From: Escherichia coli
GTDB lineage: Bacteria > Pseudomonadota > Gammaproteobacteria > Enterobacterales > Enterobacteriaceae
Assembly: GCF_050920415.1 (NCBI RefSeq)
Contig: NZ_CP169309.1
Direction: 5' to 3' (one strand)
DNA: 64,000 nucleotides
Within the stretch, counting starts at the first letter, position 1. Every line of letters starts with the position of its first letter. Of this stretch, positions 29,760 through 57,855 are shown piece after piece. Made by a program: the position numbers and the translations under genes. The notes below the pieces were generated by a model, which saw only the letters and a list, made by a program, of their open reading frames with translations, was not told the origin of the DNA and made no database searches.

Positions 29760-30398
29760 ATGCCCGGGCGCTTTGAACTAAAACCAACCCTGGAGAAAGT
29801 CTGGCACGCGCCGGACAATTTTCGCTTCATGGACCCGCTACCGCCGATGCATCGTCGGGGGATCATTATTGCCGCTATTGTATTGGTGGTCGGATTTCTA
29901 CTCCCGTCGGATGATACGCCAAACGCGCCGGTGGTGACGCGTGAAGCACAGTTAGATATTCAGTCGCAATCACAACCGCCGACAGAAGAACAGCTGCGGG
30001 CGCAATTAGTCACACCACAAAATGATCCTGATCAGGTGGCTCCGGTCGCTCCAGAACCGATACAGGAAGGCCAACCGGAAGAGCAGCCGCAAACCTCGCA
30101 AGTGCAACCTTTCCAGCCAGATAGCGGAATTGACAATCAATGGCGCTCTTATCGTGTCGAACCCGGTAAAACAATGGCGCAGCTGTTCCGCGACCACGGA
30201 CTGCCCGCTACCGATGTCTATGCAATGGCGCAGGTAGAAGGCGCGGATAAGCCACTGAGTAATTTGCAAAATGGGCAGATGGTGAAAATCCGCCAGAACG
30301 CCAGCGGCGTGGTGACGGGCTTAACCATTGATACGGGAAATAATCAACAGGTTCTGTTTACCCGCCAGCCGGATGGCAGTTTTATTCGCGCGCGGTAG
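29760..30398 (+). CDS. ytfB: OapA-domain cell-division/envelope protein YtfB
   Basis: GAGGAA Shine-Dalgarno then ATG 29760 ([19 protein letters not shown]..., 212 aa); TM anchor and Pro/Gln-rich linker. Confidence 0.9.
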
Positions 30399-31029
30399 AT
30401 GAAGGGTCAACCAGAAGCCAGCTAAGGATCGTCTCTTTGATGACCTTACGCCTGGCTTCCAGTGCCTGCGGTGAAACCATACTGATGTGATAAACCAGGC
30501 CAAGCGTATGTTGGTTGATCAAATAATATCCTCCAAGAGCAGCAATATTAATATTCACCTGCAACGGGTCGATATCTGGCTTAAAAATATTGCGCCGTTT
30601 GCCTTCAGCTAATAATGACTCCATTAACTGTAAGTGTGCGTGGTTAATTTCTAAAAGGCGCTGTGATTTTGCATAATGCACCCCTTTACTCTGGTTTTCA
30701 CTATGCACAATTTTTAAAAACCAGGGGTTAGCAATGTAATAATCCCAGGTGAAATCGATAATTTTCTCAATGGCTTTTTGTGGCGGAAGACCTGAGAAAT
30801 CAAGGGATTTTTCTTTTTGCCGAATATCATTCCAGGTATATTCCAGCACTTCGATAAATAAATTTTCTTTATTACCAAAGTGATGATAAACCGTCTGTTT
30901 ACTGCACTCCGCGGCCTTGACGATATTATCGACTCTGGCCCCTTCGTAACCATATTCGGCAAATTCATTAACCGCACATAACAACAGCTTTTCCTTCAGG
31001 CTTTGTACGTTGCTGGTATCAAGATACAT
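30382..31029 (-). CDS. TetR/AcrR-family transcriptional regulator (islet regulator)
   Basis: ORF track start 31089 is GTG; ATG 31027-31029 gives [58 protein letters not shown] (TetR N-terminal HTH), 215 aa. Divergent from the downstream operon; 3' end overlaps the ytfB 3' end by 17 bp. Confidence 0.85.
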
Positions 31030-31151
31030 TCCGCTTCCCCACGTCTTCTTCGTGATGACTATCTTAACCCGATTTGTTAGAAGCTCCACTAAAATGGCTA
31101 AAAACTCGCAATTTCATCGGGTTATCAAATGCTCTGTGATCATTATCGCAT

Positions 31152-31173
31152 ATCAACCAACTAGATGGTTGAT
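31152..31173. promoter_or_regulatory. Candidate TetR operator (22 bp palindrome) in the islet divergent promoter
   Basis: ATCAACCA-ACTAGA-TGGTTGAT: perfect 8 bp inverted arms with a 6 bp spacer, between the regulator start (31029) and the operon start (31241). Confidence 0.4.
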
Positions 31174-31240
31174 CTTTCTTGCCACACATTGCAAGCTAAT
31201 CGTCACTTAAGGAAATAATATTCAAAAAGAGGGTTATTGT

Positions 31241-32032
31241 ATGAAGTCAACACGTCCTGTTGCTGTCATCACTGGAGCCGCACGTGGTATTGGAAAGGGC
31301 TGTGCACTGGAACTTGCGCGTGGCGGATTTAATCTGCTGATTAATGATCGTCCGGATGCCGACAGCGTAGAAAAATTACATGCCACACAACAAGAATGTC
31401 TGGCGGAAGGCGTGGAAGTGATTTGCTTCCCTGCTGATGTTGGCGATCTCTCCCTTCATGAAGAGATGCTCGACGCGGCGCAAAACCAGTGGGGACGTCT
31501 GGACTGTCTACTCAACAACGCAGGCATTTCAGTGAAAAAACGCGGTGACCTCCTCGACCTCGAACCAGACAGCTTCGACCAAAACATTGCCATTAACACC
31601 CGTGCGCCGTTCTTCCTTGCTCAGGCATTCAGTAAGCGATTACTGGCACAGCCGAAACCGGAAGCAGAACTGCCGCACCGCTCGATTATTTTTGTCAGTT
31701 CCATAAACGCCATCATGCTGGCGATGAATCGCGGCGAATATACCATTGCAAAAACTGCCGTCTCCGCCGCAGCTCGTCTGTTTGCCGCTCGCCTTTGCAA
31801 TGAACAAATTGGCGTTTATGAAGTGCGCCCTGGCCTAATCAAAACCGATATGACCATTCCGGCAACGGCTTATTACGACGAACTGATTGCTAAGGGGTTA
31901 GTGCCGTGGGGACGTTGGGGTTATCCGGCTGATATTGCCTCAACGGTCCGCGCGATGGCGGAAGGCAAACTGATTTACACCTGTGGTCAGGCGGTCGCCA
32001 TCGACGGCGGCTTAAGTATGCCGCGCTTCTGA
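31241..32032 (+). CDS. Short-chain dehydrogenase/reductase (SDR) family oxidoreductase
   Basis: 263 aa ORF; TGAARGIG cofactor-binding motif, NNAG, and catalytic Y-x3-K (EYTIAK); AGAGGG Shine-Dalgarno. Confidence 0.85.
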   Translation: MKSTRPVAVITGAARGIGKGCALELARGGFNLLINDRPDADSVEKLHATQQECLAEGVEVICFPADVGDLSLHEEMLDAAQNQWGRLDCLLNNAGISVKKRGDLLDLEPDSFDQNIAINTRAPFFLAQAFSKRLLAQPKPEAELPHRSIIFVSSINAIMLAMNRGEYTIAKTAVSAAARLFAARLCNEQIGVYEVRPGLIKTDMTIPATAYYDELIAKGLVPWGRWGYPADIASTVRAMAEGKLIYTCGQAVAIDGGLSMPRF

Positions 32033-32041
32033 GGCTGAATC

Positions 32042-32884
32042 ATGAGAGATCTGTTACAACGCCCGGATTTATTCAGTATCAATACTGCGACACTGGGCTA
32101 TAAAACGCCGCTACCTGCCATTATTGATGCCTGCGCCGCACGCGGTATTGGCGCGATTGCCCCCTGGCGCAGGGAGTTGCAGGGTGAAGATCTCCAGCAA
32201 ATCGCCCGCCAGCTTGCTGCCAGTAACATGAGCGTTTCCGGTTTGTGTCGTAGCACCTATTACACCGCGCCGACGCTGACGGAACGCAAACTGGCGATTG
32301 ATGATAACCGCCGGGCGCTGGACGACGCCGCTGTACTGAACGCCGCCTGTTATATGCAGGTGGTTGGCGGTCTGCCAATGGGAACAAAAGATCTGTACGA
32401 AGCACGGGAACAGGTGAAACAAGGGATTCGCCAGTTGCTGCCACATTCGAAAGAGGTCGGCGTGCCAATTGCACTGGAGCCACTGCACCCGATGACTGCT
32501 GCCGATCGTTCTTGTCTGTGCACATTACGTCAGGCGCTGGACTGGTGTGATGAACTCGATCCCGATGGCGAATTTGGCCTCGGCGTGGCGGTAGATGTCT
32601 ACCATGTCTGGTGGGACCCGGATCTCGCCAGTCAGATCCTGCGTGCCGGAAAACGCATCCTCGCGTTTCATGTTTCCGACTGGCTGGTGCCAACCACCGA
32701 TTTAGTCAATGATCGGGGAATGCCGGGAGATGGCGTCATTAATATTCCCTCTATTCGTCGGCTGGTTGAAAACGCCGGATTTAATGGCGCTATTGAACTG
32801 GAAATATTCTCGCCGTACTGGTGGCAGAAAGATATTAACAGCACGCTGGATATTAGCGTCGATCGCATCGCGCATTATTGCTAA
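32042..32884 (+). CDS. Sugar-phosphate isomerase/epimerase-like TIM-barrel enzyme (xylose-isomerase-like fold)
   Basis: 280 aa ORF with the LEP / FHVSD signature pattern typical of this fold; 9 nt downstream of the SDR stop. Confidence 0.7.
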   Translation: MRDLLQRPDLFSINTATLGYKTPLPAIIDACAARGIGAIAPWRRELQGEDLQQIARQLAASNMSVSGLCRSTYYTAPTLTERKLAIDDNRRALDDAAVLNAACYMQVVGGLPMGTKDLYEAREQVKQGIRQLLPHSKEVGVPIALEPLHPMTAADRSCLCTLRQALDWCDELDPDGEFGLGVAVDVYHVWWDPDLASQILRAGKRILAFHVSDWLVPTTDLVNDRGMPGDGVINIPSIRRLVENAGFNGAIELEIFSPYWWQKDINSTLDISVDRIAHYC

Positions 32885-32893
32885 GGAATGATC

Positions 32894-33670
32894 ATGAGTG
32901 ACCAACCCGTTCTGTTCAGCAGAGCGGCGGCTTCCTGCCGCCTGACATTGAACCGTGAAGATAAATGTCATGCTATTAATGAAGAAATGATCGAATCTCT
33001 CGACCATTATTTAAATGAAATTGAAAACGACACCACATTACGATTAGTCGAATTAACGGCAACCGGCGATAAATTCTTTTGTGCGGGCGGCGATATTAAA
33101 TCGTGGTCAGCCTATTCGCCATTAGATATGGGCAGAAAATGGATTAAACGCGGCAATGACGTTTTTAATCGCCTGCGCAATTTACCTCAATTAACGGTTG
33201 CGAATCTCAACGGTCATACTATCGGCGGTGGTATTGAACTTGCCTTGTGCTGCGATATTCGTATTGCCCGCCCCAGTGCGAAATTCTCTAATCCGGAAGT
33301 AATGCTCGGCATGGTGCCTGGCTGGATGGGCATTGAACGCGTGCTTAATCAGGTCGGTCCGGTGGTCGGTCGCCAGATGCTGATGCTGGGTAAACGCCTG
33401 ACGGCGCAGGAAGCTCAGGCGGCGAATTTAATTGATGAAGTGGTAGAAAAAGAACAGGTGGAAAGCTGGATGGCGAATCAGTTAGCGCAGCTGGAAAAAT
33501 GCGGTCCGGTGGCGCTCGCACATATCAAGCAACTGATTCTGGCTCTAGAAAATAAACATGCTGATTACCCGCACCAGTTACTGGCTGGATTAATGTCCGC
33601 CACTCAGGATTGCCAGCAGGCGACGCGCGCATTTGCCGAAAAAAGTAGCGTGAGCTTCCAAAATCAATAA
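32894..33670 (+). CDS. Enoyl-CoA hydratase/isomerase (crotonase) family protein
   Basis: Crotonase hallmarks FFCAGGDIKSW and GHTIGGGIELALCCDIRIA; ATG 32894 is preferred over 32888 on Shine-Dalgarno spacing. Confidence 0.85.
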   Translation: MSDQPVLFSRAAASCRLTLNREDKCHAINEEMIESLDHYLNEIENDTTLRLVELTATGDKFFCAGGDIKSWSAYSPLDMGRKWIKRGNDVFNRLRNLPQLTVANLNGHTIGGGIELALCCDIRIARPSAKFSNPEVMLGMVPGWMGIERVLNQVGPVVGRQMLMLGKRLTAQEAQAANLIDEVVEKEQVESWMANQLAQLEKCGPVALAHIKQLILALENKHADYPHQLLAGLMSATQDCQQATRAFAEKSSVSFQNQ

Positions 33671-33679
33671 GGAAATTGT

Positions 33680-35221
33680 ATGCGTAAGATAACAACCGCC
33701 GAGACACTGGCGGCGCAAATTCAGGACGGCGCAACCATTGCCATTAGCGGTAATGGCGGCGGCATGGTGGAAGCGGACCATATTCTGGCTGCTATTGAAG
33801 CGCGTTTCCTGCAAACCGGACACCCGCGCGATCTGACATTAATCCACTCGCTGGGCATTGGCGATCGCGACTGCAAAGGCACTAACCGCTTCGCTCATGC
33901 AGATATGCTCAAACGCATCATTGCCGGACATTTTACCTGGTCGCCCAAGATGCAGGATCTGGTGAAAAACAATGCTATTGAAGCCTACTGCTTCCCTGGT
34001 GGCGTAATTCAGGCACTGCTGCGGGAGATCGGTGCCGGACGTCCAGGGCTTTTTACCCACGTTGGACTGGGATCGTTTGTTGATCCGCGCAACGGCGGCG
34101 GTAAGTCGAACGCCAGCACCACTGAGGATCTGGTAGAACTGATTGAAATCGACGGTGAAACCAAACTTCGTTATCGCCCTTTCAAAGTGGATTACGCGAT
34201 TTTGCGTGGCACTTATGCTGATCCGCGTGGCAACGTCAGCCTCGAAGAAGAGGCGATTGATATGGATAGCTATTCCATGGCGCTGGCAGCACACAACAGC
34301 GGCGGCAAAGTGTTCGTACAGGTGCGCGATGTGCTGGAAGCTGGTGCCATTGAACCACGCCGGGTCAAATTACCGGGCATTCTGGTTGATGGCATCGTTG
34401 AACACCGCGAACAACCACAAACCTATCTTGGCGGTTACGATCTGACCATTAGCGGTCAGCATCGCCGTCTAAGTTCTAACGACGCAATTGAACTGGTTAG
34501 TCATCCGGTGCGCCGCCTGATTGCCCGTCGGGCAGCACGCGAACTGGTAGCTGGCGCTTCAACCAACTTTGGCTTTGGCATTCCCGGCGGCATTCCTGGG
34601 GTTGCACTGCGCGAAGGCGTGCCTTATCAAAGTTTATGGCTGAGCGTCGAGCAAGGCGTGCATAACGGTATGATGCTGGATGATGCTCTGTTCGGCTGCG
34701 CCCGTAACGCCGATGCCATTATTCCATCACTCGATCAATTCGAATTCTACAGTGGCGGAGGGATCGATATCACCTTCCTCGGCATGGGAGAGATGGATCA
34801 GCATGGTAACGTCAACGTCTCCCATCTCAATGGCAATCTCATTGGCCCCGGCGGATTTCTCGAAATTGCGCAAAACGCCCGTAAAGTGGTGTTCTGTGGC
34901 ACGTTCGACGCCAAAGGTAGCAAGATTGATGTAACACCAGATGGCTTGCATATCGCCCAGTCAGGTCAAATCCCTAAACTGGTTACCCAGGTGGAAAAAA
35001 TCACTTTTAGCGCCGCCTACGCACAGCAAAGCGGTCAGGAAGTGTTGTATATCACTGAACGTGCAGTATTCCAGTTAACGGCAGAAGGCGTTGAATTAAT
35101 TGAAATCGCGCCGGGTGTGGAGATTGAACGCGACATTCTGCCGCATATGGCTTTCCGTCCAATTATCAATCAGCCACGCCTGATGGAAAGTAGCCTGTTT
35201 ACGCCGATGGAGGATGCATGA
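33680..35221 (+). CDS. Fused family-I CoA-transferase (acyl-CoA:acetate/3-ketoacid CoA-transferase-like)
   Basis: 513 aa ORF about the size of fused alpha/beta family-I CoA-transferases, with glycine-rich loops (ISGNGGG, SGGGIDITFLGMGE); AAGGA Shine-Dalgarno. Confidence 0.7.
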   Translation: MRKITTAETLAAQIQDGATIAISGNGGGMVEADHILAAIEARFLQTGHPRDLTLIHSLGIGDRDCKGTNRFAHADMLKRIIAGHFTWSPKMQDLVKNNAIEAYCFPGGVIQALLREIGAGRPGLFTHVGLGSFVDPRNGGGKSNASTTEDLVELIEIDGETKLRYRPFKVDYAILRGTYADPRGNVSLEEEAIDMDSYSMALAAHNSGGKVFVQVRDVLEAGAIEPRRVKLPGILVDGIVEHREQPQTYLGGYDLTISGQHRRLSSNDAIELVSHPVRRLIARRAARELVAGASTNFGFGIPGGIPGVALREGVPYQSLWLSVEQGVHNGMMLDDALFGCARNADAIIPSLDQFEFYSGGGIDITFLGMGEMDQHGNVNVSHLNGNLIGPGGFLEIAQNARKVVFCGTFDAKGSKIDVTPDGLHIAQSGQIPKLVTQVEKITFSAAYAQQSGQEVLYITERAVFQLTAEGVELIEIAPGVEIERDILPHMAFRPIINQPRLMESSLFTPMEDA

Positions 35222-37299
35222 GTCAGCTTGATGACACCCTCCTTGATGCGCTGACGCACGTCACTTTCCCGAAGGGTTTTGTGTCAGCAGAGCCAGCGTC
35301 AATTGTCACGGTTGAAGATGTCGATTACCCGATCTGGCAAGTTGATGCGCTAGTCGTTGGTAGCGGCGCGGCAGGGCTGCGCGCAGCGGTTGAACTTAAG
35401 CGCCGCCAGCAAAATGTGCTGATCGCCACCGCCGGGTTATATATGGGGACATCGGCATGTTCTGGTTCCGATAAACAGACGCTGTTTACCGCCGCTACCG
35501 CGGGCAACGGCGATAACTTCGCTAAACTGGCGGAAGCACTGGCGAGCGGTGGGGCGATGGATCACGACACCGCTTATGTCGAAGCGGTAGGTTCTCTGCA
35601 CACTCTTGGCGGGTTGCAATATCTTGGTCTGGAATTACCGGAAGATCGCTATGGCGCAATTCTTCGTTATCAAACCGACCATGACGAAGCCGGGCGAGCA
35701 ACCTCGTGTGGGCCGCGTACTTCTCGCCTAATGGTGAAAGTATTGCTGGAGGAAGTGCAGCGTCTTGCCATACCACTACTGACCAGTGCAACGGTGATTA
35801 AGCTCCTGCATCAGCACGGAGAGAATGGCGAAGATCGCGTTGCGGGGGCTATTCTCGCAACCGGTTCCCGCGCCTATAACCCTTGGGGGCTGGCTATTGT
35901 GACGGCGCCCAATGTGGTACTGGCAACGGGCGGACCGGGCGAGCTTTATCGCGACAGTGTTTATCCACATAAATGCTTCGGCTCGCTGGGGCTGGCGCTG
36001 GAAGAAGGTCTGACGCTAACCAATCTGACCGAAAGCCAGTTTGGTATAGGCACGCCGCGCAGCACGTTTCCGTGGAATTTGTCCGGCACCTATGTACAGG
36101 TGATCCCATATATCTATTCCGTGGATGCCGGGGGCAACGAGTATAACTTCCTCGCAGATTACTATCGCACCACCCAGGAGCTGGCTTCAAACATCTTCCG
36201 TAAAGGCTATCAGTGGCCGTTTCACGCCACACGAGTGATGGATTTTGGCTCCAGCTTGTTAGATATGGCAGTAGCGCAAGAGCAGCAATCAGGGCGTCAG
36301 GTATTTATGGATTTCAATCGCAATCCTGAACCTGTGCCGGGTGACCTGCCGTTCTCATTAGATCGACTGGACGACGACGTTCGCGCGTATCTGGAAAATA
36401 ACGACGCTCTGGCACCATCGCCCATCGAACGACTGCAACGAATGAATCCGCTGTCTATCTCGCTGTATAAGATGCACGGTTACGATCTCACCACGCAGCC
36501 ATTGCAGTTTGCCATGAATAATCAGCATATGAATGGCGGCATTGAAGTGGATATCTGGGGGCAAACCTCCCTGTCCGGCTGTTTCGCCGTGGGGGAAGTT
36601 GCTGGCACACACGGCGTCACTCGCCCTGGTGGTGCGGCATTGAATGCCGGGCAGGTTTTTGCTGTTCGTCTGGCACGTTTTATTGGTTGCACGCAAAAGC
36701 GGTCCGTTGAGGATGATGTCGCGCAGCTAGTAGCCTCACCTCTGCATACAATCAGAGAAGTTATCGCTCAGGCACTGGCAAACGAGAACGGAATGACGCT
36801 GGCAACGGTAAAAGAAAAAATCCAGGCGCGAATGTCTGATTACGCGGGATTTATTTGCCATGCTGATAAAGTTCGTCACGCCGCCCGTGACGCCATGCTG
36901 TTAAATGAATTTGCGCAGCAACATGGTCTAACTATCAACCACGCCGGTGAAATTGCCGAGCTATTTATGTGGCGGCATATGGCATTAACATCCGCTGCGG
37001 TGTTAAGCCAGCTATCACATTATATTGATGCTGGCGGTGGTAGTCGTGGAGCGCGGATGATTATTGATCCACAAGGAGAATATCTTCCACAAACTCGTCG
37101 CGGCGCAATCGAAGATTGGCGTTTTCGCTCTGAACAAGCTGAAGATAAAAATCACAGACTAACTCTCTCCTTTTCACAAGGTTTATTTATTAATGAAATT
37201 AAGTTCTTGAGAAACTTACCGCATATTAAAGGTATTTACTTTGAGAAGAATTGGCCTGATTTTCTTAACGGAACAATTTATCAGACACGGCATGAATAA
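35218..37299 (+). CDS. FAD-binding flavoprotein of the fumarate reductase / succinate dehydrogenase / L-aspartate oxidase superfamily
   Basis: 693 aa ORF; N-terminal dinucleotide-binding motif DALVVGSGAAGLRAAVEL; ATG overlaps the CoA-transferase stop (ATGA); the last ~300 nt are AT-rich. Confidence 0.75.
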   Translation: MSQLDDTLLDALTHVTFPKGFVSAEPASIVTVEDVDYPIWQVDALVVGSGAAGLRAAVELKRRQQNVLIATAGLYMGTSACSGSDKQTLFTAATAGNGDNFAKLAEALASGGAMDHDTAYVEAVGSLHTLGGLQYLGLELPEDRYGAILRYQTDHDEAGRATSCGPRTSRLMVKVLLEEVQRLAIPLLTSATVIKLLHQHGENGEDRVAGAILATGSRAYNPWGLAIVTAPNVVLATGGPGELYRDSVYPHKCFGSLGLALEEGLTLTNLTESQFGIGTPRSTFPWNLSGTYVQVIPYIYSVDAGGNEYNFLADYYRTTQELASNIFRKGYQWPFHATRVMDFGSSLLDMAVAQEQQSGRQVFMDFNRNPEPVPGDLPFSLDRLDDDVRAYLENNDALAPSPIERLQRMNPLSISLYKMHGYDLTTQPLQFAMNNQHMNGGIEVDIWGQTSLSGCFAVGEVAGTHGVTRPGGAALNAGQVFAVRLARFIGCTQKRSVEDDVAQLVASPLHTIREVIAQALANENGMTLATVKEKIQARMSDYAGFICHADKVRHAARDAMLLNEFAQQHGLTINHAGEIAELFMWRHMALTSAAVLSQLSHYIDAGGGSRGARMIIDPQGEYLPQTRRGAIEDWRFRSEQAEDKNHRLTLSFSQGLFINEIKFLRNLPHIKGIYFEKNWPDFLNGTIYQTRHE

Positions 37300-37319
37300 T
37301 ATTGCAAAGGTTAATCACT

Positions 37320-37796
37320 ATGCGAAATATAATCAGATCTATTAATTCATTGCTTTCCACATTGAACATTACCATTTTGGCAATTATTGTGATGTGCGTT
37401 ACATGGCAAGTAGTAGCACGATTTATCTTTAAAAGCCCCAGCATTTTTACAGATGAACTTAGTCGTTTACTATTTATTTGTCTTGGACTTTTTGGTGGTG
37501 CTTATACTGCCGGACAAAACCGACATCTGGCCATTGATCTTCTGCCAATGATGCTAAAAGGAAAATCCCGACGTTATTTATTCTTATGTATTCAGGCCAT
37601 TGTTATTCTTTTTGCCTCTATCATTATGGTTTATGGTGGCGGGTTATTAACACTGGACACATTTGATTCAGGGCAAACTTCTCCGGCTTTAGGCTGGCAG
37701 ATGGGATATATTTACATGAGCATTCCAATAAGTGGCATCCTTATTATTATATACACCATAGATACAGTTTTAACCGAACTTAAACAACCACTCTAA
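37320..37796 (+). CDS. TRAP transporter small permease (DctQ-like)
   Basis: ORF track start 37302 is TTG; ATG 37320 with AAGG Shine-Dalgarno gives a ~158 aa four-TM protein; strongly AT-rich. Confidence 0.8.
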   Translation: MRNIIRSINSLLSTLNITILAIIVMCVTWQVVARFIFKSPSIFTDELSRLLFICLGLFGGAYTAGQNRHLAIDLLPMMLKGKSRRYLFLCIQAIVILFASIIMVYGGGLLTLDTFDSGQTSPALGWQMGYIYMSIPISGILIIIYTIDTVLTELKQPL

Positions 37797-37818
37797 AATA
37801 AGTAGGGATGGAGAAAAC

Positions 37819-39120
37819 ATGGATTACTGGTTACCGATCATTGTGTTATTTGGTGCTTTCTTTTTTATGTTGGCATTAGGTGTTCCTATTGTCTATGCTA
37901 TTGGTTTATCAACACTGGCATCAATTACTACACAACTCGATTTCAACTCAGCGTTAAGTGTGGTTTCCCAAAAGTTAGCCTCCGGGTTAGATAGTTTTAC
38001 GTTGTTGGCAATCCCATTTTTTATTTTGTCTGGCAACATTATGAATCACGGAGGAATAGCGCGACGATTAATCAACTTTGCCCGAATTCTCGGCGGTCGT
38101 CTGCCAGGCTCACTTGCCCACTGTAATATTCTTGCCAATATGCTGTTCGGGGCAATTTCTGGTTCAGCCGTGGCTTCGGCGGCTGCGATGGGCGGCGTCA
38201 TGCATCCGCAACAGGTTAAAGAGGGCTACGACCCGGCATTCAGTACTGCAGTTAACGTTGCCTCTGCCCCGACGGGTTTGCTTATTCCACCCAGTAATAC
38301 GTTAATCGTCTATTCACTGGTCAGTGGTGGTACTTCTATTGCCGCACTGTTCCTGGCAGGATATGTCCCGGGAATTTTATTGGGCCTGGCGCTGATGACT
38401 GTGGCTGGTATTATCGCGGTACGCCGGGGTTATCCAAAACCAGAACGTCCGACTTTGCGCCAGGCTGGAGTGGCAATATGGATGGCGATCCCCAGTATTT
38501 TCCTGATTGTATTAATTATGGGTGGTGTACTAAGCGGTATTTTTACCCCGACAGAAGCATCTGCAATTGCGGTAATTTATACCCTTTTCCTTGCACTGGT
38601 TCTTTATCGTGAAATATCAGTTAAAGATTTACCTAAGATATTTCTGGAGTCCGTCATTACCACTGCAATTGTCTTGTTGTTAATTGGTTCTTCAATGGGA
38701 ATGTCATGGGCAATGTCAAACGCTGACGTTCCCTTCCTGATTCTCGATTTGCTTAACACTATTTCTGACAATCCAATAATCATCCTGCTTATTATCAATA
38801 TTATCCTGTTGATTATCGGCACATTTATGGATATGACACCGGCAGTACTGATTTTTACGCCGATATTTTTACCCGTTGTCACCGAACTGGGTATGGACCC
38901 GATTCACTTTGGTATTGTCATGGTACTGAACATGTGTATCGGTATTTGTACTCCGCCTGTAGGCAGTGTGTTATTTGTCGGTTGTAGTGTATCTAAATTA
39001 CCGATTAATAAAATTATCAAACCTATGCTGCCATTCTATGCCGTGATGGTATTGGTGCTGGCAATGGTTACCTATATTCCGCAAATCAGTATGGCATTGC
39101 CAAGAGCACTGGGCTACTGA
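37819..39120 (+). CDS. TRAP transporter large permease (DctM-like)
   Basis: 433 aa polytopic membrane ORF MDYWLPIIVLFGAFFFMLALGVPIVYAIGL...; AT-rich. Confidence 0.88.
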   Translation: MDYWLPIIVLFGAFFFMLALGVPIVYAIGLSTLASITTQLDFNSALSVVSQKLASGLDSFTLLAIPFFILSGNIMNHGGIARRLINFARILGGRLPGSLAHCNILANMLFGAISGSAVASAAAMGGVMHPQQVKEGYDPAFSTAVNVASAPTGLLIPPSNTLIVYSLVSGGTSIAALFLAGYVPGILLGLALMTVAGIIAVRRGYPKPERPTLRQAGVAIWMAIPSIFLIVLIMGGVLSGIFTPTEASAIAVIYTLFLALVLYREISVKDLPKIFLESVITTAIVLLLIGSSMGMSWAMSNADVPFLILDLLNTISDNPIIILLIINIILLIIGTFMDMTPAVLIFTPIFLPVVTELGMDPIHFGIVMVLNMCIGICTPPVGSVLFVGCSVSKLPINKIIKPMLPFYAVMVLVLAMVTYIPQISMALPRALGY

Positions 39121-39172
39121 TATGCATTAACTGGCGGCACCTGCCGCCATATTTATTAGAAAAGGAACATCT

Positions 39173-40144
39173 ATGAAAATAAAAGTATCCGCTGGCATTA
39201 TCGGTGCTGTTCTTATGCTATCCGCAAGCCAGTCCTGGGCAGTAACATTAAAACTTAGCCATAATCAGGATAAATCTCATCCTGTTCATAAAGCGATGGA
39301 GTTCTTTGCGAAAAAGAGCAAAGAGTACTCTAACGGTGATATTACTATTCGTATTTATCCAAATGGAACATTGGGTACTCAACGAGAAACAATGGAGCTG
39401 ATTCGTTCTGGTGCTATTCCGCTGGTAAAAACCAATGCGGCGGAGATGGAAGCCTTCGAGAGTTCGTATAAAATATTTAGCCTGCCTTATTTGTTCCGCG
39501 ATCGTGATCATTATTATCAGGTCATGCAAGGCGATATCGGAAGGAAAATCCTCGACTCAACGAAAAGCAAAGGTTATTTCGGGCTGACTTTCTATGATGG
39601 AGGCGCCCGCAGTTTCTACGGTAATAAACCGGTACTGAAACCAGACGATCTGAAAGGCATGAAAGTCCGTGTCCAGCCAAGTCCTGGCGCAGTTGAAATG
39701 ATCAAAGTCATGGGCGGTAACCCGACGCCACTGGATTACGGCGAGCTGTATACGGCCTTACAGCAGGGCGTGGTCGATATGGCAGAAAACAGCGTGATGG
39801 CACTGACCACTATGCGTCACGGTGAAGTGGCAAAATCCTTTAGCCTTGATGAGCACACCATGGTGCCCGATGTGGTTCTGATGAGTAATGCTGCATTTGA
39901 TAAACTCAGCCCTGAAAATCAGGCAGTTATATTAAAAGCAGCGAAAGAATCGATGAGTTACATGAAGGAGTTATGGAGCGAGCAAGAGAAACAAGAATTT
40001 GCAAAACTGGATAAAATGGGCGTAAAAGTCTACCCGGTTGATAAAGCACCGTTTATCGAGAAAGTACAACCGATGTACGCAAACTTCGCTAAAGATAACC
40101 CTGCCCTTGCCCCAATGCTGGCTGATATTCAGGCGGCTAAGTAA
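39173..40144 (+). CDS. TRAP transporter periplasmic solute-binding protein (DctP-like)
   Basis: 323 aa ORF with signal peptide MKIKVSAGIIGAVLMLSASQSWA; last gene of the operon. Confidence 0.88.
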   Translation: MKIKVSAGIIGAVLMLSASQSWAVTLKLSHNQDKSHPVHKAMEFFAKKSKEYSNGDITIRIYPNGTLGTQRETMELIRSGAIPLVKTNAAEMEAFESSYKIFSLPYLFRDRDHYYQVMQGDIGRKILDSTKSKGYFGLTFYDGGARSFYGNKPVLKPDDLKGMKVRVQPSPGAVEMIKVMGGNPTPLDYGELYTALQQGVVDMAENSVMALTTMRHGEVAKSFSLDEHTMVPDVVLMSNAAFDKLSPENQAVILKAAKESMSYMKELWSEQEKQEFAKLDKMGVKVYPVDKAPFIEKVQPMYANFAKDNPALAPMLADIQAAK

Positions 40145-50945: not shown

Positions 50946-52571
50946 TTATAAACATACTCCCCCCGTCGCCCGCAGCAATAAATCATTCTGGATCTGCTCT
51001 GACAACCGCACGCCGCCGCGCGTATCAAACATCATCTGACACCACGCCTGCGCCATTGGCGGAGAGGCATATTTCAACATTTGCGCGCCGCAACCCAGCA
51101 GGAATAGCTGACGAGTAATCTCTCGCCCCATTTCTTCAGCTGGCTTACGCAGTTGCTGCTGCAAACGACGAACCGCGCGATCAAAATAGCGATCCTGTCC
51201 TTTCACTTCCACAAATGCTTCTGTCAGCAAATCGTATACCCCAGCCTGCTTATTGAGAACGCGCAGCACATCGAGGCACATAATATTGCCAGAACCTTCC
51301 CAGATGCTGTTCACTGGCATTTCCCGATAAAGTCGCGGTAGTTCGCTCTCTTCGCAATAGCCAATACCGCCCAGCACCTCCATCGCTTCAGCCACAAACG
51401 GAATGCCACGTTTGCAGATAACAAATTTCGCCGCAGGCGTAAATAAGCGCGCCCACAGGGCTTCTTTGGCATCGGCACGCCGATCCCACGCTCGCGCAAG
51501 ACGAAACAGCAACGCTGTTTGCCCTTCAAGTTGGAGCGCCATGCGGCTTAAGACATGACGCATCAAAGGCTGTTGGATCAATGGATTACCAAAAACATGG
51601 CGTTGATGGGCATGATAAATCGCCAGCGAAAATGCACGGCGCATCATGGCATGGCTACCCAGGGCGCAATCAAAACGCGTCATCCCACCCATTTTCAGGA
51701 TCAGACGAACTCCTTCCCCTTCCTGCCCCAACAACCAGCCAATGGCATCCTGAAACTCCACTTCGCAGCTGGCGTTAGAGCGATTACCCAGCTTATCTTT
51801 CAGCCGCTCGAGGCGAATCGCGTTGCGTTGCCCGTCAGGCAAAAAGCGCGGCACAAAAAAGCAGGACAAACCGCCCGTAGTCTGCGCCAGCACCAGATGC
51901 GCATCGCTTTGCGGCACCGAGAAAAACCATTTATGCCCCACCAGCCGATAAGAGCCATCGTCCAGACGCTCTGCGCGGGTAGTGTTGCTCATCACATCGG
52001 AACCGCCCTGCTTTTCCGTCATGCCCATGCCAATCAACAAACCGCGTTTTTGCCCACCTGGCAATAAGTGGGAATCGTAGCGATCGCTCAACAGCGGCGT
52101 GGTCCAGTCCTGAAACGGCGCGGGTAACATCTGTAACAGCAATGGCGTGGCGGCAAAGGTCATGGTTATCGGACATAACGACCCTGCCTCAACCTGTGCG
52201 TGCAACATAAAACGCGCCGCGCGCGCCACAAATGCGCCGGAGCGAGCGTCTTCTTCCCAGGCAAGATTGTGCACCCGATTGGTACATAGCGCCTGCATCA
52301 GCAAGTGCCAGGCGGGGTGAAAACGCACATCGTCCAGACGGCGTCCTTGCGCATCGTAGCGCAATAATTCAGGCGGATTCACATTCGCCAGCCGCCCCAG
52401 TTCAAGAGATTCAGCCGTTCCTAACTGCTGACCAATACTGGCGAGAAAATCGCTATCCCAGCCAGCACCTTCACGCGTTACCGCTTCGCAGAGCGCGCCA
52501 TCAGACAGGTATAAGTTGCTGTTATTTAATGGTATAGGTTGATTAAAAACGGTGTGAGTTTGCCAGTGCAC
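50946..52571 (-). CDS. aidB: Acyl-CoA-dehydrogenase-like adaptive-response protein AidB
   Basis: ACAD-fold ORF; start taken at GTG 52569-52571 (..HWQTHTVFNQPIPLNN.., 541 aa) to match the length I remember; an in-frame ATG at 52584-52586 would add 5 residues. Confidence 0.9.
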   Translation of the reverse strand: MHWQTHTVFNQPIPLNNSNLYLSDGALCEAVTREGAGWDSDFLASIGQQLGTAESLELGRLANVNPPELLRYDAQGRRLDDVRFHPAWHLLMQALCTNRVHNLAWEEDARSGAFVARAARFMLHAQVEAGSLCPITMTFAATPLLLQMLPAPFQDWTTPLLSDRYDSHLLPGGQKRGLLIGMGMTEKQGGSDVMSNTTRAERLDDGSYRLVGHKWFFSVPQSDAHLVLAQTTGGLSCFFVPRFLPDGQRNAIRLERLKDKLGNRSNASCEVEFQDAIGWLLGQEGEGVRLILKMGGMTRFDCALGSHAMMRRAFSLAIYHAHQRHVFGNPLIQQPLMRHVLSRMALQLEGQTALLFRLARAWDRRADAKEALWARLFTPAAKFVICKRGIPFVAEAMEVLGGIGYCEESELPRLYREMPVNSIWEGSGNIMCLDVLRVLNKQAGVYDLLTEAFVEVKGQDRYFDRAVRRLQQQLRKPAEEMGREITRQLFLLGCGAQMLKYASPPMAQAWCQMMFDTRGGVRLSEQIQNDLLLRATGGVCL

Positions 52572-52654
52572 TGTGTCTCCCTCCATCAATGGCAGTCACC
52601 CTTAGTATGGTCACTGCCATGGATTCCTGACAGAAAGAGATTGCTAAAACATTC

Positions 52655-53818
52655 TTACCCAGCAATGTAATGCGGAACGAAACGTGAGGTGTCTTTGGTG
52701 ATCAGCGTGTTATCTTCACGGATTCCCATTCCGCACGCTTCATCATCGACAATCCAGCTACCGATGAGTGTGTAGCTATCGCCAAATCGCGGCAGAGGTT
52801 GAAACGCCTGATAGATCATCGGTTCATCGGCGTAATCACCCTCAGCGTGGTCAACGACGTTATTCTGACCGTCGAAAATGGTGACGTTTCCGCCTTCGCG
52901 TGAGTAGATCGGTTTACGCACATAGCTTTCGCCAGCGGCAATCTGCGGTTTTTCGCCATCAAACCAGGATGCAAGTAGGTTAGGATGACCAGGAAAGAAG
53001 CGCCAAAGCAGCGGCATTAACCCTTTGTTGCTCAAGATACTTTTCCATAACGGCTCCACCCATTGCTCGCGGCGCTTGCGCAGCAGAGGACCGTTATCGT
53101 CACGCATCATCCATTCCAGCGGATACAGCTTAAATGCACGCTGGATGACATTATCATCAAGATCGGTCAGTACACCGCCGACGCCCAAACCGAGATCTTC
53201 AATGTAGATAAACCGTGACTCCTGCCCAGCCTGCTGAGCGCAGTCCTGCAAGTACAGCACAGTACTCCTGTCTTCGTCGGTATCCTGACAACAGCAGAAA
53301 TAAAACGGTTCCCGACTGTAAAGCTCGCTAAAACGCGAAATCAGGCGTTCCTGAATGGCATTGTACTGATCGGCATCACGCGGAATAATGCCGCTACGCC
53401 GCGCATCTTCCAGCCACAGCCACTGGAAATAAGCCGATTCATACAACGAGGTTGGCGTATCGGCGTTGTACTCCAGCAGCTTCACCGGCGCATTGCCACA
53501 CCAGGCAAAATCCATCCGACCATACAGCGAAGGATCGCGTGCGCGCCAGCTTTCAGCGATCACATCCCAGTACAGCGGGGGGATCGCCAGTTGCGTCAGG
53601 ATTTCTTCGTCTTGAACCGCACGATCCACCACCTCAAGGCACATCTGATGCAGTTCCGCAGTTGGTTTTTCGATCTGCTCTTCTATCTGACGCAGAGTAA
53701 AGCGGTAAGCCCGACTCTCATCCCAATAGATTTCATTGTCGATGATATGAAAGTCGAAACCGTTGTCGGCGGCGATCTGGTCCAGATCCCGTCGTACAGG
53801 AACGTTGTGTCTCAGCAT
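52655..53818 (-). CDS. yjfC: Glutathionylspermidine-synthase-like ATP-grasp protein YjfC
   Basis: 387 aa ORF MLRHNVPVRRDLDQIAADNGFDFHIIDNEIYWDES...; last gene of the yjfI-yjfC cluster. Confidence 0.92.
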   Translation of the reverse strand: MLRHNVPVRRDLDQIAADNGFDFHIIDNEIYWDESRAYRFTLRQIEEQIEKPTAELHQMCLEVVDRAVQDEEILTQLAIPPLYWDVIAESWRARDPSLYGRMDFAWCGNAPVKLLEYNADTPTSLYESAYFQWLWLEDARRSGIIPRDADQYNAIQERLISRFSELYSREPFYFCCCQDTDEDRSTVLYLQDCAQQAGQESRFIYIEDLGLGVGGVLTDLDDNVIQRAFKLYPLEWMMRDDNGPLLRKRREQWVEPLWKSILSNKGLMPLLWRFFPGHPNLLASWFDGEKPQIAAGESYVRKPIYSREGGNVTIFDGQNNVVDHAEGDYADEPMIYQAFQPLPRFGDSYTLIGSWIVDDEACGMGIREDNTLITKDTSRFVPHYIAG

Positions 53819-54884: not shown

Positions 54885-55544
54885 TTAACCAATAATATGA
54901 AGTGATGTCAGTGGGATATCAACACCCAGTGCGCGCGAAAATAACCACTCCGGCTCGCCGAGATCGTTAAAAGATTCCTCACCATTTAACAGCAAATATT
55001 CACAGGTATCTTCGGTCACCTGCCGTTCATAGCCCATGGTAAAATTATGCACTTCCCATTTGGCGTGGTTTTGATTTTCAACTTTTTCCAGCATATAGAC
55101 GGGTTCGATATTCCCCGGTTCTTCGCTGTTAAAAAATCGCTGCCAGCGTTTTTCCTGCCAGTTTAATGTCATTGCCCCCATCGCTTTGGCGTTGATCGCT
55201 TCGCGCCAGTGGCTCTCTTTGCTGATACCGTAGCTCTCTTCATAGACAAAGAGCTTTATATCATCAATGTCATCAATATCTTCGCCGCCGGTGGTATTGA
55301 TTTGCAGAAATTCATCGCCCGAAGTGTAGTAGCGGAAAATCTGACTACCGCCGCCCAGATCGATGTGGCTGACAGCGGCTACCGTAAATTCTTCACCCGG
55401 CAGCGCAATCAGCAATTCATCTTCCAGCAAACGAAACGCTAACGTGTCGAGCGTAAAGCCGCTATTGAGATGAAGTCCCAGCGGGCCACGTGCGGTTACA
55501 GGTTTATCATCCTTACCAAACAGACGCTTGAAAAAACTTGTCAT
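54885..55544 (-). CDS. yjfK: DUF2491 protein YjfK
   Basis: 219 aa ORF MTSFFKRLFGKDDKPVTARGPLGLHLNSG...; start overlaps the stop of the upstream channel-like gene (ATGA). Confidence 0.9.
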   Translation of the reverse strand: MTSFFKRLFGKDDKPVTARGPLGLHLNSGFTLDTLAFRLLEDELLIALPGEEFTVAAVSHIDLGGGSQIFRYYTSGDEFLQINTTGGEDIDDIDDIKLFVYEESYGISKESHWREAINAKAMGAMTLNWQEKRWQRFFNSEEPGNIEPVYMLEKVENQNHAKWEVHNFTMGYERQVTEDTCEYLLLNGEESFNDLGEPEWLFSRALGVDIPLTSLHIIG

Positions 55545-56611
55545 ATGCTTCCCTCAATGTCCTGCCATACCACTTCTTCAGCCAAAATACGGTTATTGCC
55601 AATAAGATGCAGCCACATACCGCCTTTAACTTCCGTTGCAATGACTGGATTCAGTTCCATTCCCCTACCATTTTTACAACTGCTTATTCCCAGGACGGTG
55701 GCATCATGATGAAGTTTCATATAATGCATCAATGCGCCATAACGCATCGAGGTAACCCGTTCAGGAATCGGTAAAACAAACCCCGTATCCCCCAGCATTG
55801 GATTCATAATCGATGCCACTGATTGAGATGAACCGGGATCTTGTATTGAACGGGAAAGTTGTTCTGCTGAAATATTTCGCACTATTTCAATACGTTGACA
55901 ATGAACCTCTAATAAACGAGCGTAGCGTTCATCTTCCAGATAAGCGACGATATGGCATCTTTCAGGAATAAAATCCGCCAGGGATAGTGCGGTCGTGAAC
56001 GTCTGCTCATCTGTTTGCGAAAAGATGATGACACTTTGGCAATTTGCCAGTCCCATGCGGGTATGTTCATGCGGATCATTAAAATTACTAATACGAATGA
56101 AATCGACCCAATTATTTCCAGGCATCGGATGTTGAATATCATCCCGCTCACACAAAAGTACCCGGCCAAATGCTCTTCGGGAATCAAACAACAATAATGA
56201 AATCATCTTTTCAGTCTGATGCCCGCGCCATCCAATGACCAGCATATGGTTGCGCAAATTGCTGTAGTCGCCCATTCCCGTCATTCCTTTCGCCAATATG
56301 TCTTGCACTAATGCAATGACTTTTCCCATTAAAGCGCCAAATAAACCAACACTCACAGGAATCTGCCAGAGCGCTGTGAACAGACGTCCCCCAACCGTTT
56401 GGGGTGTGATATCACCAAACCCCAGCGTTGATCCCACAACCGAGCAGTAATAAATAAAATTACTCAGTTGACCTACCAACGCCTCTTCATGCAACGCAGT
56501 TAACACCAGATAACAAAACAGATACTGTCCTGTAAATAATCCAGTCAATGCCGGCCAGGTAAGCCTGGAAAGGTGACGTCGGCAGGTTTTAATGATCCAG
56601 GAGAAGAACAT
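55541..56611 (-). CDS. Two-TM potassium-channel-like protein with C-terminal RCK/TrkA-N-like domain
   Basis: 356 aa ORF: TM1 (LTGLFTGQYLFCYLVLTAL), pore helix with selectivity-filter-like TLGFGD, TM2 (LFTALWQIPVSVGLFGALMG), then an RCK-type segment starting HMLVIGWRGHQTEK. Start ATG shares its A with the yjfJ TAA stop; stop overlaps the yjfK ATG. Confidence 0.8.
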   Translation of the reverse strand: MFFSWIIKTCRRHLSRLTWPALTGLFTGQYLFCYLVLTALHEEALVGQLSNFIYYCSVVGSTLGFGDITPQTVGGRLFTALWQIPVSVGLFGALMGKVIALVQDILAKGMTGMGDYSNLRNHMLVIGWRGHQTEKMISLLLFDSRRAFGRVLLCERDDIQHPMPGNNWVDFIRISNFNDPHEHTRMGLANCQSVIIFSQTDEQTFTTALSLADFIPERCHIVAYLEDERYARLLEVHCQRIEIVRNISAEQLSRSIQDPGSSQSVASIMNPMLGDTGFVLPIPERVTSMRYGALMHYMKLHHDATVLGISSCKNGRGMELNPVIATEVKGGMWLHLIGNNRILAEEVVWQDIEGSI

Positions 56612-57807: not shown

Positions 57808-57840
57808 CAAAAAAAAACCATCCAAATATGGATGGTTTTT
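57808..57840. terminator. Bidirectional hairpin terminator after rlmB
   Basis: AACCATCCA-AATA-TGGATGGTT perfect stem flanked by A9 upstream and T5 downstream; a T-run follows on the minus strand after the rlmB stop. Confidence 0.85.
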
Positions 57841-57855
57841 CATAATTCAGAGAAA

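Follow-up and report, generated by a model that had tools for sequence, protein, structure and literature searches.

The 83-nt spacer between yjfC and aidB in Escherichia coli carries an inverted repeat that lies within the core of the aidB promoter, with the promoter's -10 box held in the loop of the hairpin, and RNA folding predicts that this repeat is the inner part of a larger structure that buries the aidB Shine-Dalgarno (SD) sequence. We consider it about an even chance that the hairpin is a fold-back structure, one that would block the translation of AidB from RNA reading through from the yjfI-yjfC operon and would leave the transcript of the aidB promoter itself translatable.

All positions given here are those of the window, by which we mean the whole 64,000-nt stretch of E. 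coli contig NZ_CP169309.1 that was analyzed. The relevant genes (yjfK, yjfL, yjfM, yjfC and aidB) are all annotated on the minus strand. A 401-nt query spanning the finding matches NZ_CP169399.1 at 100% identity and occurs in 5,424 of 5,426 complete genomes, and 5,182 complete E. coli genomes have the spacer (52572-52654) at 95% identity or more. The coding-strand sequence of the spacer is GAATGTTTTAGCAATCTCTTTCTGTCAGGAATCCATGGCAGTGACCATACTAAGGGTGACTGCCATTGATGGAGGGAGACACA, followed by GTG. The features of the locus are as follows.

53818-52655, minus strand: yjfC
52657-52655, minus strand: yjfC stop codon, TAA, after which the spacer starts
52653-52641, minus strand: Ada box AATGTTTTAGCAA (A box AAT, B box GCAA), read from the sequence against the published consensus
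52640-52628, minus strand: 5' strand of the predicted outer stem, TCTCTTTCTGTCA, an anti-SD tract in the -35/spacer region of the promoter (RNA folds)
52627-52621, minus strand: asymmetric internal loop (7-nt bulge) GGAATCC, containing a G/T polymorphism at 52627 (RNA folds)
52620-52610, minus strand: 5' arm of the palindrome, ATGGCAGTGAC, at promoter positions of about -23 to -13
52609-52604, minus strand: CATACT, the -10 hexamer of the aidB promoter (sigmaS/Ada-dependent), which forms part of the apical loop
52599-52589, minus strand: 3' arm of the palindrome, GTGACTGCCAT, including the conserved 5'-UTR motif TGCCAT
52598-52596, minus strand: putative aidB transcription start, placed from the -10 box, 6-8 nt past it and inside the 3' arm
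52588-52576, minus strand: 3' strand of the predicted outer stem, TGATGGAGGGAGA, holding the SD GGAGGGAG (52584-52577) and a non-conserved in-frame ATG (52586-52584)
52571-52569, minus strand: aidB start codon, GTG
52571-50946, minus strand: aidB, with a 541-aa product

Elsewhere in the window, a gene annotated as a 'potassium channel family protein' (55541-56611, minus strand) lies between yjfJ and yjfK, overlaps both neighbors by a few bases and is missing from the yjfI-yjfC operon of MG1655. An unnamed cluster at about 30382-40144, between ytfB and rplI, encodes a TetR regulator, a 3-ketoacyl-ACP reductase, a sugar-phosphate isomerase, an enoyl-CoA hydratase, a CoA transferase, an FAD oxidoreductase and a TRAP transporter.

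The original prediction described a near-palindrome in the yjfC-aidB spacer with 11-nt arms and one mismatch, and this description was borne out: the plus strand reads ATGGCAGTCAC (52589-52599), CCTTAGTATG (52600-52609) and GTCACTGCCAT (52610-52620), with 10 of 11 positions paired around a 10-nt loop. A repeat search lengthens the arms to 16 nt at 88% complementarity (52585-52600 and 52609-52624). When repeats with at least 10/11 positions paired and a loop of 3-12 are counted as comparable, the window holds 29 hits at about 15 loci, and Markov simulations give 6.4 +/- 3.0 hits; one such repeat somewhere in 64 kb is thus unremarkable, and the expectation within the 83-nt spacer is about 0.008. 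The arms are identical in MG1655, which differs only at 52627 and 52602, both unpaired, and in other Escherichia lineages G replaces A at 52620, where a G.U pair would remain in RNA. In every other genus the pairing between the flanks of the -10 box is no stronger than in shuffled sequence (p > 0.07), and on this comparison the palindrome is an Escherichia-specific extension of the larger predicted fold.

The promoter that surrounds the repeat is already known biology, as is the GTG start of the gene: the E. coli aidB promoter studied by Landini, Volkert and co-workers, which is dependent on Ada and sigmaS, shares with the one described here the locus, the Ada box, the -12C and the 541-aa GTG-start gene. 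That the loop is the -10 box follows from three observations. First, the aidB -10 element is known to start with C (-12C) and to be recognized by sigmaS RNA polymerase (PMC3141248), and a -10 context of the sigmaS type, C-CATACT-AA, is found at 52610-52602. Second, the Ada box AATGTTTTAGCAA, which matches the consensus AAT-N6-GCAA for Ada binding at the ada and aidB promoters (PMC3788762, PMC4437013), lies 31 nt upstream of CATACT. Finally, C-CATACT-TA is near-invariant across 83 unique promoter-to-start variants, drawn from 31 Enterobacterales aidB loci in genomes and from 101 metagenome stretches, where it stands 29-33 nt ahead of the start codon (32 nt in 67 of the 83). A consensus promoter scan around the spacer returned 0 sites; a sigma70 scan misses the aidB promoter because of its poor -35 region and the C at the first position of the -10 element. 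The inverted repeat at the -10 box and the anti-SD tract go unmentioned in the accessible literature, and an earlier mention is possible in the primary promoter papers, which lay outside its scope.

Since the -10 box lies in the loop, transcription would start at about 52597, within the 3' arm, and aidB mRNA begun at this promoter would therefore lack the 5' arm and be unable to fold the hairpin. From the position of the -10 box we thus infer that the normal aidB mRNA is without the hairpin, which bears on the earlier suggestion that the repeat structures the aidB 5' leader. For the normal mRNA this suggestion did not hold; RNA structure nevertheless probably matters, in read-through RNA from yjfC only.

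At the position of the Ada box the variants differ by lineage. AAT-N6-GCAA is limited to the Escherichia variants (4/83), most other Enterobacterales have a conserved TTTTGTGA(C/T)C, and Yersinia, Serratia and Hafnia have TTGTGAT-N8-GCAAAAA; Ada control of aidB may, to judge from these sequences, be lineage-specific. Other regulatory motifs considered by eye were set aside: a sigma54 -24/-12 motif (TGGCA... without a correctly spaced TTGC partner), a RutR-like TGACCA half-site with the second half absent, and an FNR TTGAT half-site that is not conserved.

The placement of the repeat also invites the explanation that it is a DNA operator, with a dimeric regulator on half-sites flanking the -10 box and the start repressing the aidB promoter. 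Repressor operators typically lie over the -10 box and +1, as this repeat does, and several regulators of aidB are known: Ada and sigmaS (PMC4437013), Lrp, which is named only in the title of a cited reference, and AidB itself, through autoregulation (PMC3236019; also the MG1655 product name). Orthologous promoters, however, share the -10 box, the SD and the UTR motif but lack conserved half-sites, and the common Escherichia alleles in which A52620 is replaced by G weaken the DNA symmetry and keep the G.U pair in RNA. The known AidB site is moreover said, after Rippa et al. in 2010, to be the UP-element region upstream, which counts against an operator at the -10 box. We therefore hold the operator explanation to be quite improbable.

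The original prediction had also called the start codon of aidB ambiguous. Both candidate codons exist as it claimed, GTG at 52571, which gives 541 aa, and the in-frame ATG at 52586-52584, and a TTG is also present at 52589. The ambiguity was not borne out; by comparison of homologous starts, SD spacing, annotation and PDB chains, aidB starts at GTG 52571. The position homologous to this GTG is ATG in 77 of the 83 variants and GTG in the other 6, and the N-terminus that follows, MHWQTHTVFN, is conserved. An SD lies 5-16 nt upstream of this start in 83/83 variants (in E. coli GGAGGGAG, 5-8 nt upstream), while 57/83 are without an in-frame upstream ATG and the E. coli ATG at 52586 falls within the SD. 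Both the PGAP and the MG1655 annotations start aidB at GTG, and the AidB chains in the PDB have 541 residues, beginning MHWQTHTV. A separate perfect 10-bp palindrome, CAGTGCACTG (52564-52573), runs across the start codon and is present only with a GTG start; ATG-start relatives read CAATGCACTG.

The structure that includes the palindrome emerges when the spacer is folded as RNA. The 101-nt spacer fold has a z of -2.9, with the palindrome as the inner part of a bigger structure, and the segment 52640-52561 folds at -33.3 kcal/mol (z -3.76). The prediction is a 23-bp two-part hairpin, with the palindrome as its inner stem and with an outer stem that joins 52640-52628 with 52588-52576. In the outer stem TCTCTTTCTGTCA pairs with TGATGGAGGGAGA, which includes the SD GGAGGGAG; a 7-nt bulge comes next, and then the palindrome. 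With 4-5 G.U pairs, the outer stem forms in sense-strand RNA and is not a DNA palindrome. Both halves are present only in RNA begun upstream of the promoter, which in E. coli is read-through from yjfC.

It had also been proposed that the hairpin could terminate the yjfI-yjfC transcript. A stem is present, soon after a stop codon as in an intrinsic (Rho-independent) terminator, but the proposal failed on what follows it: the next bases are TGATGGAGGGAGACACAGTG, without a T-run, and the stretch directly after the stem, TGATGGAGGGAG, is not the U-run by which an intrinsic terminator is recognized. The difference extends to the loop of 8-10 nt and to the overlap of the stem with the promoter and SD of the next gene. 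A terminator scan of 52300-52900 found 0 terminator-like sites, and an Rfam search of the same interval at E <= 10 returned nothing relevant, only sub-threshold archaeal snoRNA models inside yjfC.

A broader form of this proposal is that the hairpin serves the yjfI-yjfC mRNA as a terminator, an RNase III processing site or a 3'-end stabilizer, with the SD pairing incidental. The hairpin does start 14 nt past the yjfC stop codon, the 23-bp structure is predicted to be stable, and pairing is strongest where yjfC is the upstream neighbor. Apart from the missing U-tract and the lack of a terminator-like site, however, the conserved stem is exactly the one that covers the SD, and a role confined to the upstream mRNA strikes us as distinctly improbable.

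A constitutively structured aidB leader, the other role first suggested for the hairpin, would have to be transcribed from a start upstream of 52640. The stable fold that is predicted to sequester the SD would suit such a leader. Upstream of 52640, however, the Ada box and the end of yjfC are all that is present, the -10 box, conserved and of the sigmaS type, sits in the loop, and the spacing of 31 nt between the Ada box and CATACT fits the class-I arrangement of the ada and aidB promoters (PMC3788762). We see very little likelihood in a constitutive leader.

The predicted effect of the larger fold on the ribosome-binding site (RBS) depends on where the RNA begins. Accessibility was expressed as the energy required to open the region from -15 to +6, which replaced the mean unpaired probability as the measure; the latter gave a weak contrast in E. 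coli, 0.35 for the short RNA vs 0.28 for the long. For RNAs starting 6-9 nt past the -10 box the predicted opening energy is 4.3 kcal/mol, and for RNAs starting 35-150 nt farther upstream it is 13.1-14.5 kcal/mol. In long context the value for aidB, 13.7 kcal/mol, ranks 4th of the 63 annotated genes of the window, for which the median is 7.1. For duplex energies of the SD alone, the overall z against shuffles was only about -2.0.

The short aidB mRNA has a predicted feature of its own. A 5'-UTR motif, (T)TGCCA(T/A)TGA (52589-52596), is conserved in 67/83 variants and is complementary to TGGCA(A) of codons 3-4 (52560-52566), and in the predicted fold of the short mRNA the two close a weak hairpin round the SD and the start codon. 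With a Trp codon as the partner of the motif, covariation is uninformative for this hairpin.

The comparison across lineages indicates that the pairing between the two halves is shared beyond Escherichia and is related to gene order. In 17 genera, the segment immediately upstream of the -10 box binds its cognate downstream segment more strongly, by 3.2 kcal/mol, than it binds non-cognate ones (permutation p = 1e-4; -0.4 to -1.4 kcal/mol in composition controls), and the cognate pairing is better on the sense strand than on the antisense strand. In most genera the rlmB terminator stands directly ahead of the aidB promoter. yjfC is found ahead of aidB in Escherichia, in two metagenomic groups (L096/L122/L149/L150 and L113/L137) and in Siccibacter. 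Among the variants adjacent to yjfC (12 variants, 4 lineages) the opening energy of the long RNA exceeds that of the short by +10.8 kcal/mol, an excess of +7.7 over shuffled upstream halves; the corresponding values are +3.8 and +1.1 for the 26 variants adjacent to the terminator, and +3.7 and +1.2 for the 45 with another upstream context. Where one and the same downstream sequence is joined to differing upstream halves (L096 vs L147; L113 vs L085), the predicted occlusion follows the upstream half.

The predicted anti-SD:SD stem is the part of the fold that is common to other lineages in which yjfC is next to aidB. In an alignment of 10 yjfC-adjacent spacers, 99.2% of the cells of the outer helix are paired, with 39-57% in slid-partner controls, and 6/6 variable pairs still pair, one of them being seen as G-C, G.U and A-U; with only 2 pairs changed on both sides, the shuffle control for this helix is a weak one for compensatory changes. 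The three strongly pairing yjfC-adjacent lineages have homologous spacers and may, on that evidence, represent a single evolutionary origin, and the fourth, Siccibacter (L012/L168), reaches only +2 kcal/mol over shuffles. Strong occlusion is also predicted in 9/71 variants without yjfC upstream, and the link with gene order is thus not exclusive.

Further details of the locus were noted in the course of this comparison. L099, a metagenome contig (OGDJ01001213.1), joins an Escherichia-like aidB 5' end (GTG start, identical SD region) to an L085-type, terminator-adjacent upstream half, and its predicted RBS occlusion is well below that of E. coli (11.2 vs 14.5 kcal/mol). In E. coli the rlmB terminator (57812-57841; AAAAACCATCC...GGATGGTTTTT) is followed by TTTTTTTTGTCTAT, and in genera without yjfI-yjfC, TTTTTGTGACC and the aidB promoter come straight after that terminator; the presence or absence of the yjfI-yjfC operon therefore looks bounded by short TTTTGT repeats.

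These comparisons bear on a further explanation, that the palindrome has no function and arose as a by-product of two separately constrained promoter segments (-17 to -13, and TGCCAT at the transcript start) or of the mutational correction of a quasi-palindrome, to be fixed in Escherichia by descent. About five comparable repeats per 64 kb are expected by chance, the arms are unconserved outside Escherichia, as the pairing of the flanks indicates, and the GCCA motif of the 3' arm is conserved without the 5' arm in 67/83 variants; the high identity of the E. coli spacers, furthermore, means that conservation within the species says little. A functionless repeat leaves unexplained, however, the outer anti-SD:SD stem with its wobble-preserving variation and its G-C/A-U swap, the excess pairing of cognate halves, and the association with yjfC adjacency. 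It must also be set against the shuffling of the flanks of the -10 box, in which the pairing observed in Escherichia was reached in 0/500 cases (local p below 0.002). A palindrome without function is, in our judgment, unlikely, although it deserves some weight.

The reading that we prefer, fold-back insulation of aidB, could operate as follows. Polymerase at the aidB promoter would begin at about 52597, and the regulated mRNA, being without the whole 5' half, would have an open ribosome site that takes about 4 kcal/mol to unfold by prediction. Transcripts of yjfI-yjfC would run on into aidB, as they should with both genes on one strand, 83 nt between the end of yjfC and the start of aidB, and no predicted terminator in between. 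Such read-through RNA would have both halves and could fold into the 23-bp hairpin, burying the aidB SD at a predicted cost of about 13-14.5 kcal/mol. The result would be translational insulation, in which AidB is made on the firing of its own Ada/sigmaS-controlled promoter and not on transcription of the upstream operon. Rho-dependent termination within or after yjfC could make the read-through negligible.

The insulation model is new for aidB and unproven, and the mechanism it proposes would be of a kind already known. In the insertion sequence IS10 the transcription start of the element lies within an inverted repeat; the two arms occur together only in RNA initiated upstream, which folds over the ribosome-binding site, and the transcript of IS10 itself remains translatable. 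This fold-back inhibition, a phenomenon associated with Davis, Simons and Kleckner in 1985, reportedly protects the transposase of IS10 (Tn10) from external promoters. In aidB, similarly, the 3' side of the repeat (52588-52576) covers the SD and is predicted to pair with 52640-52628; with the -10 box in the loop, the putative start of the gene would fall inside the repeat. The two cases differ in that aidB is a chromosomal stress gene rather than a transposase gene, that a fixed neighboring operon supplies the upstream transcription, and that the aidB case is predicted only. In IS10 the translation signals are sequestered (PMC13181058, which cites the 1985 work), and leader hairpins that sequester an SD, as in IS200 tnpA (PMC4513863), resemble the predicted aidB fold in that an anti-SD tract pairs with the SD, with a predicted block to 30S binding; there, however, both arms are in the gene's own leader, whereas the 5' arm of aidB lies upstream of the putative start. 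The wider proposal, that aidB, an alkylation/stationary-phase gene, represents an IS10-like insulation device in an ordinary chromosomal gene, whose anti-SD half co-evolved with gene order to be strong beside yjfC and weak beside a terminator, is tentative, and we would put it somewhat short of an even chance.

In summary, were the insulation model wrong, what is described here would be a lineage-specific repeat in a well-characterized promoter, and the confirmation of the GTG start alone would stay useful. If it is true, a tightly regulated gene can follow another operon without a terminator and yet be expressed from its own promoter alone, and the promoter would also serve as the 5' half of an RNA switch by which foreign transcripts are silenced. 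Genome annotation and the design of synthetic operons would then gain a compact rule that can be tested, and the locus would show promoter and ribosome-site sequences evolving together with the order of genes.
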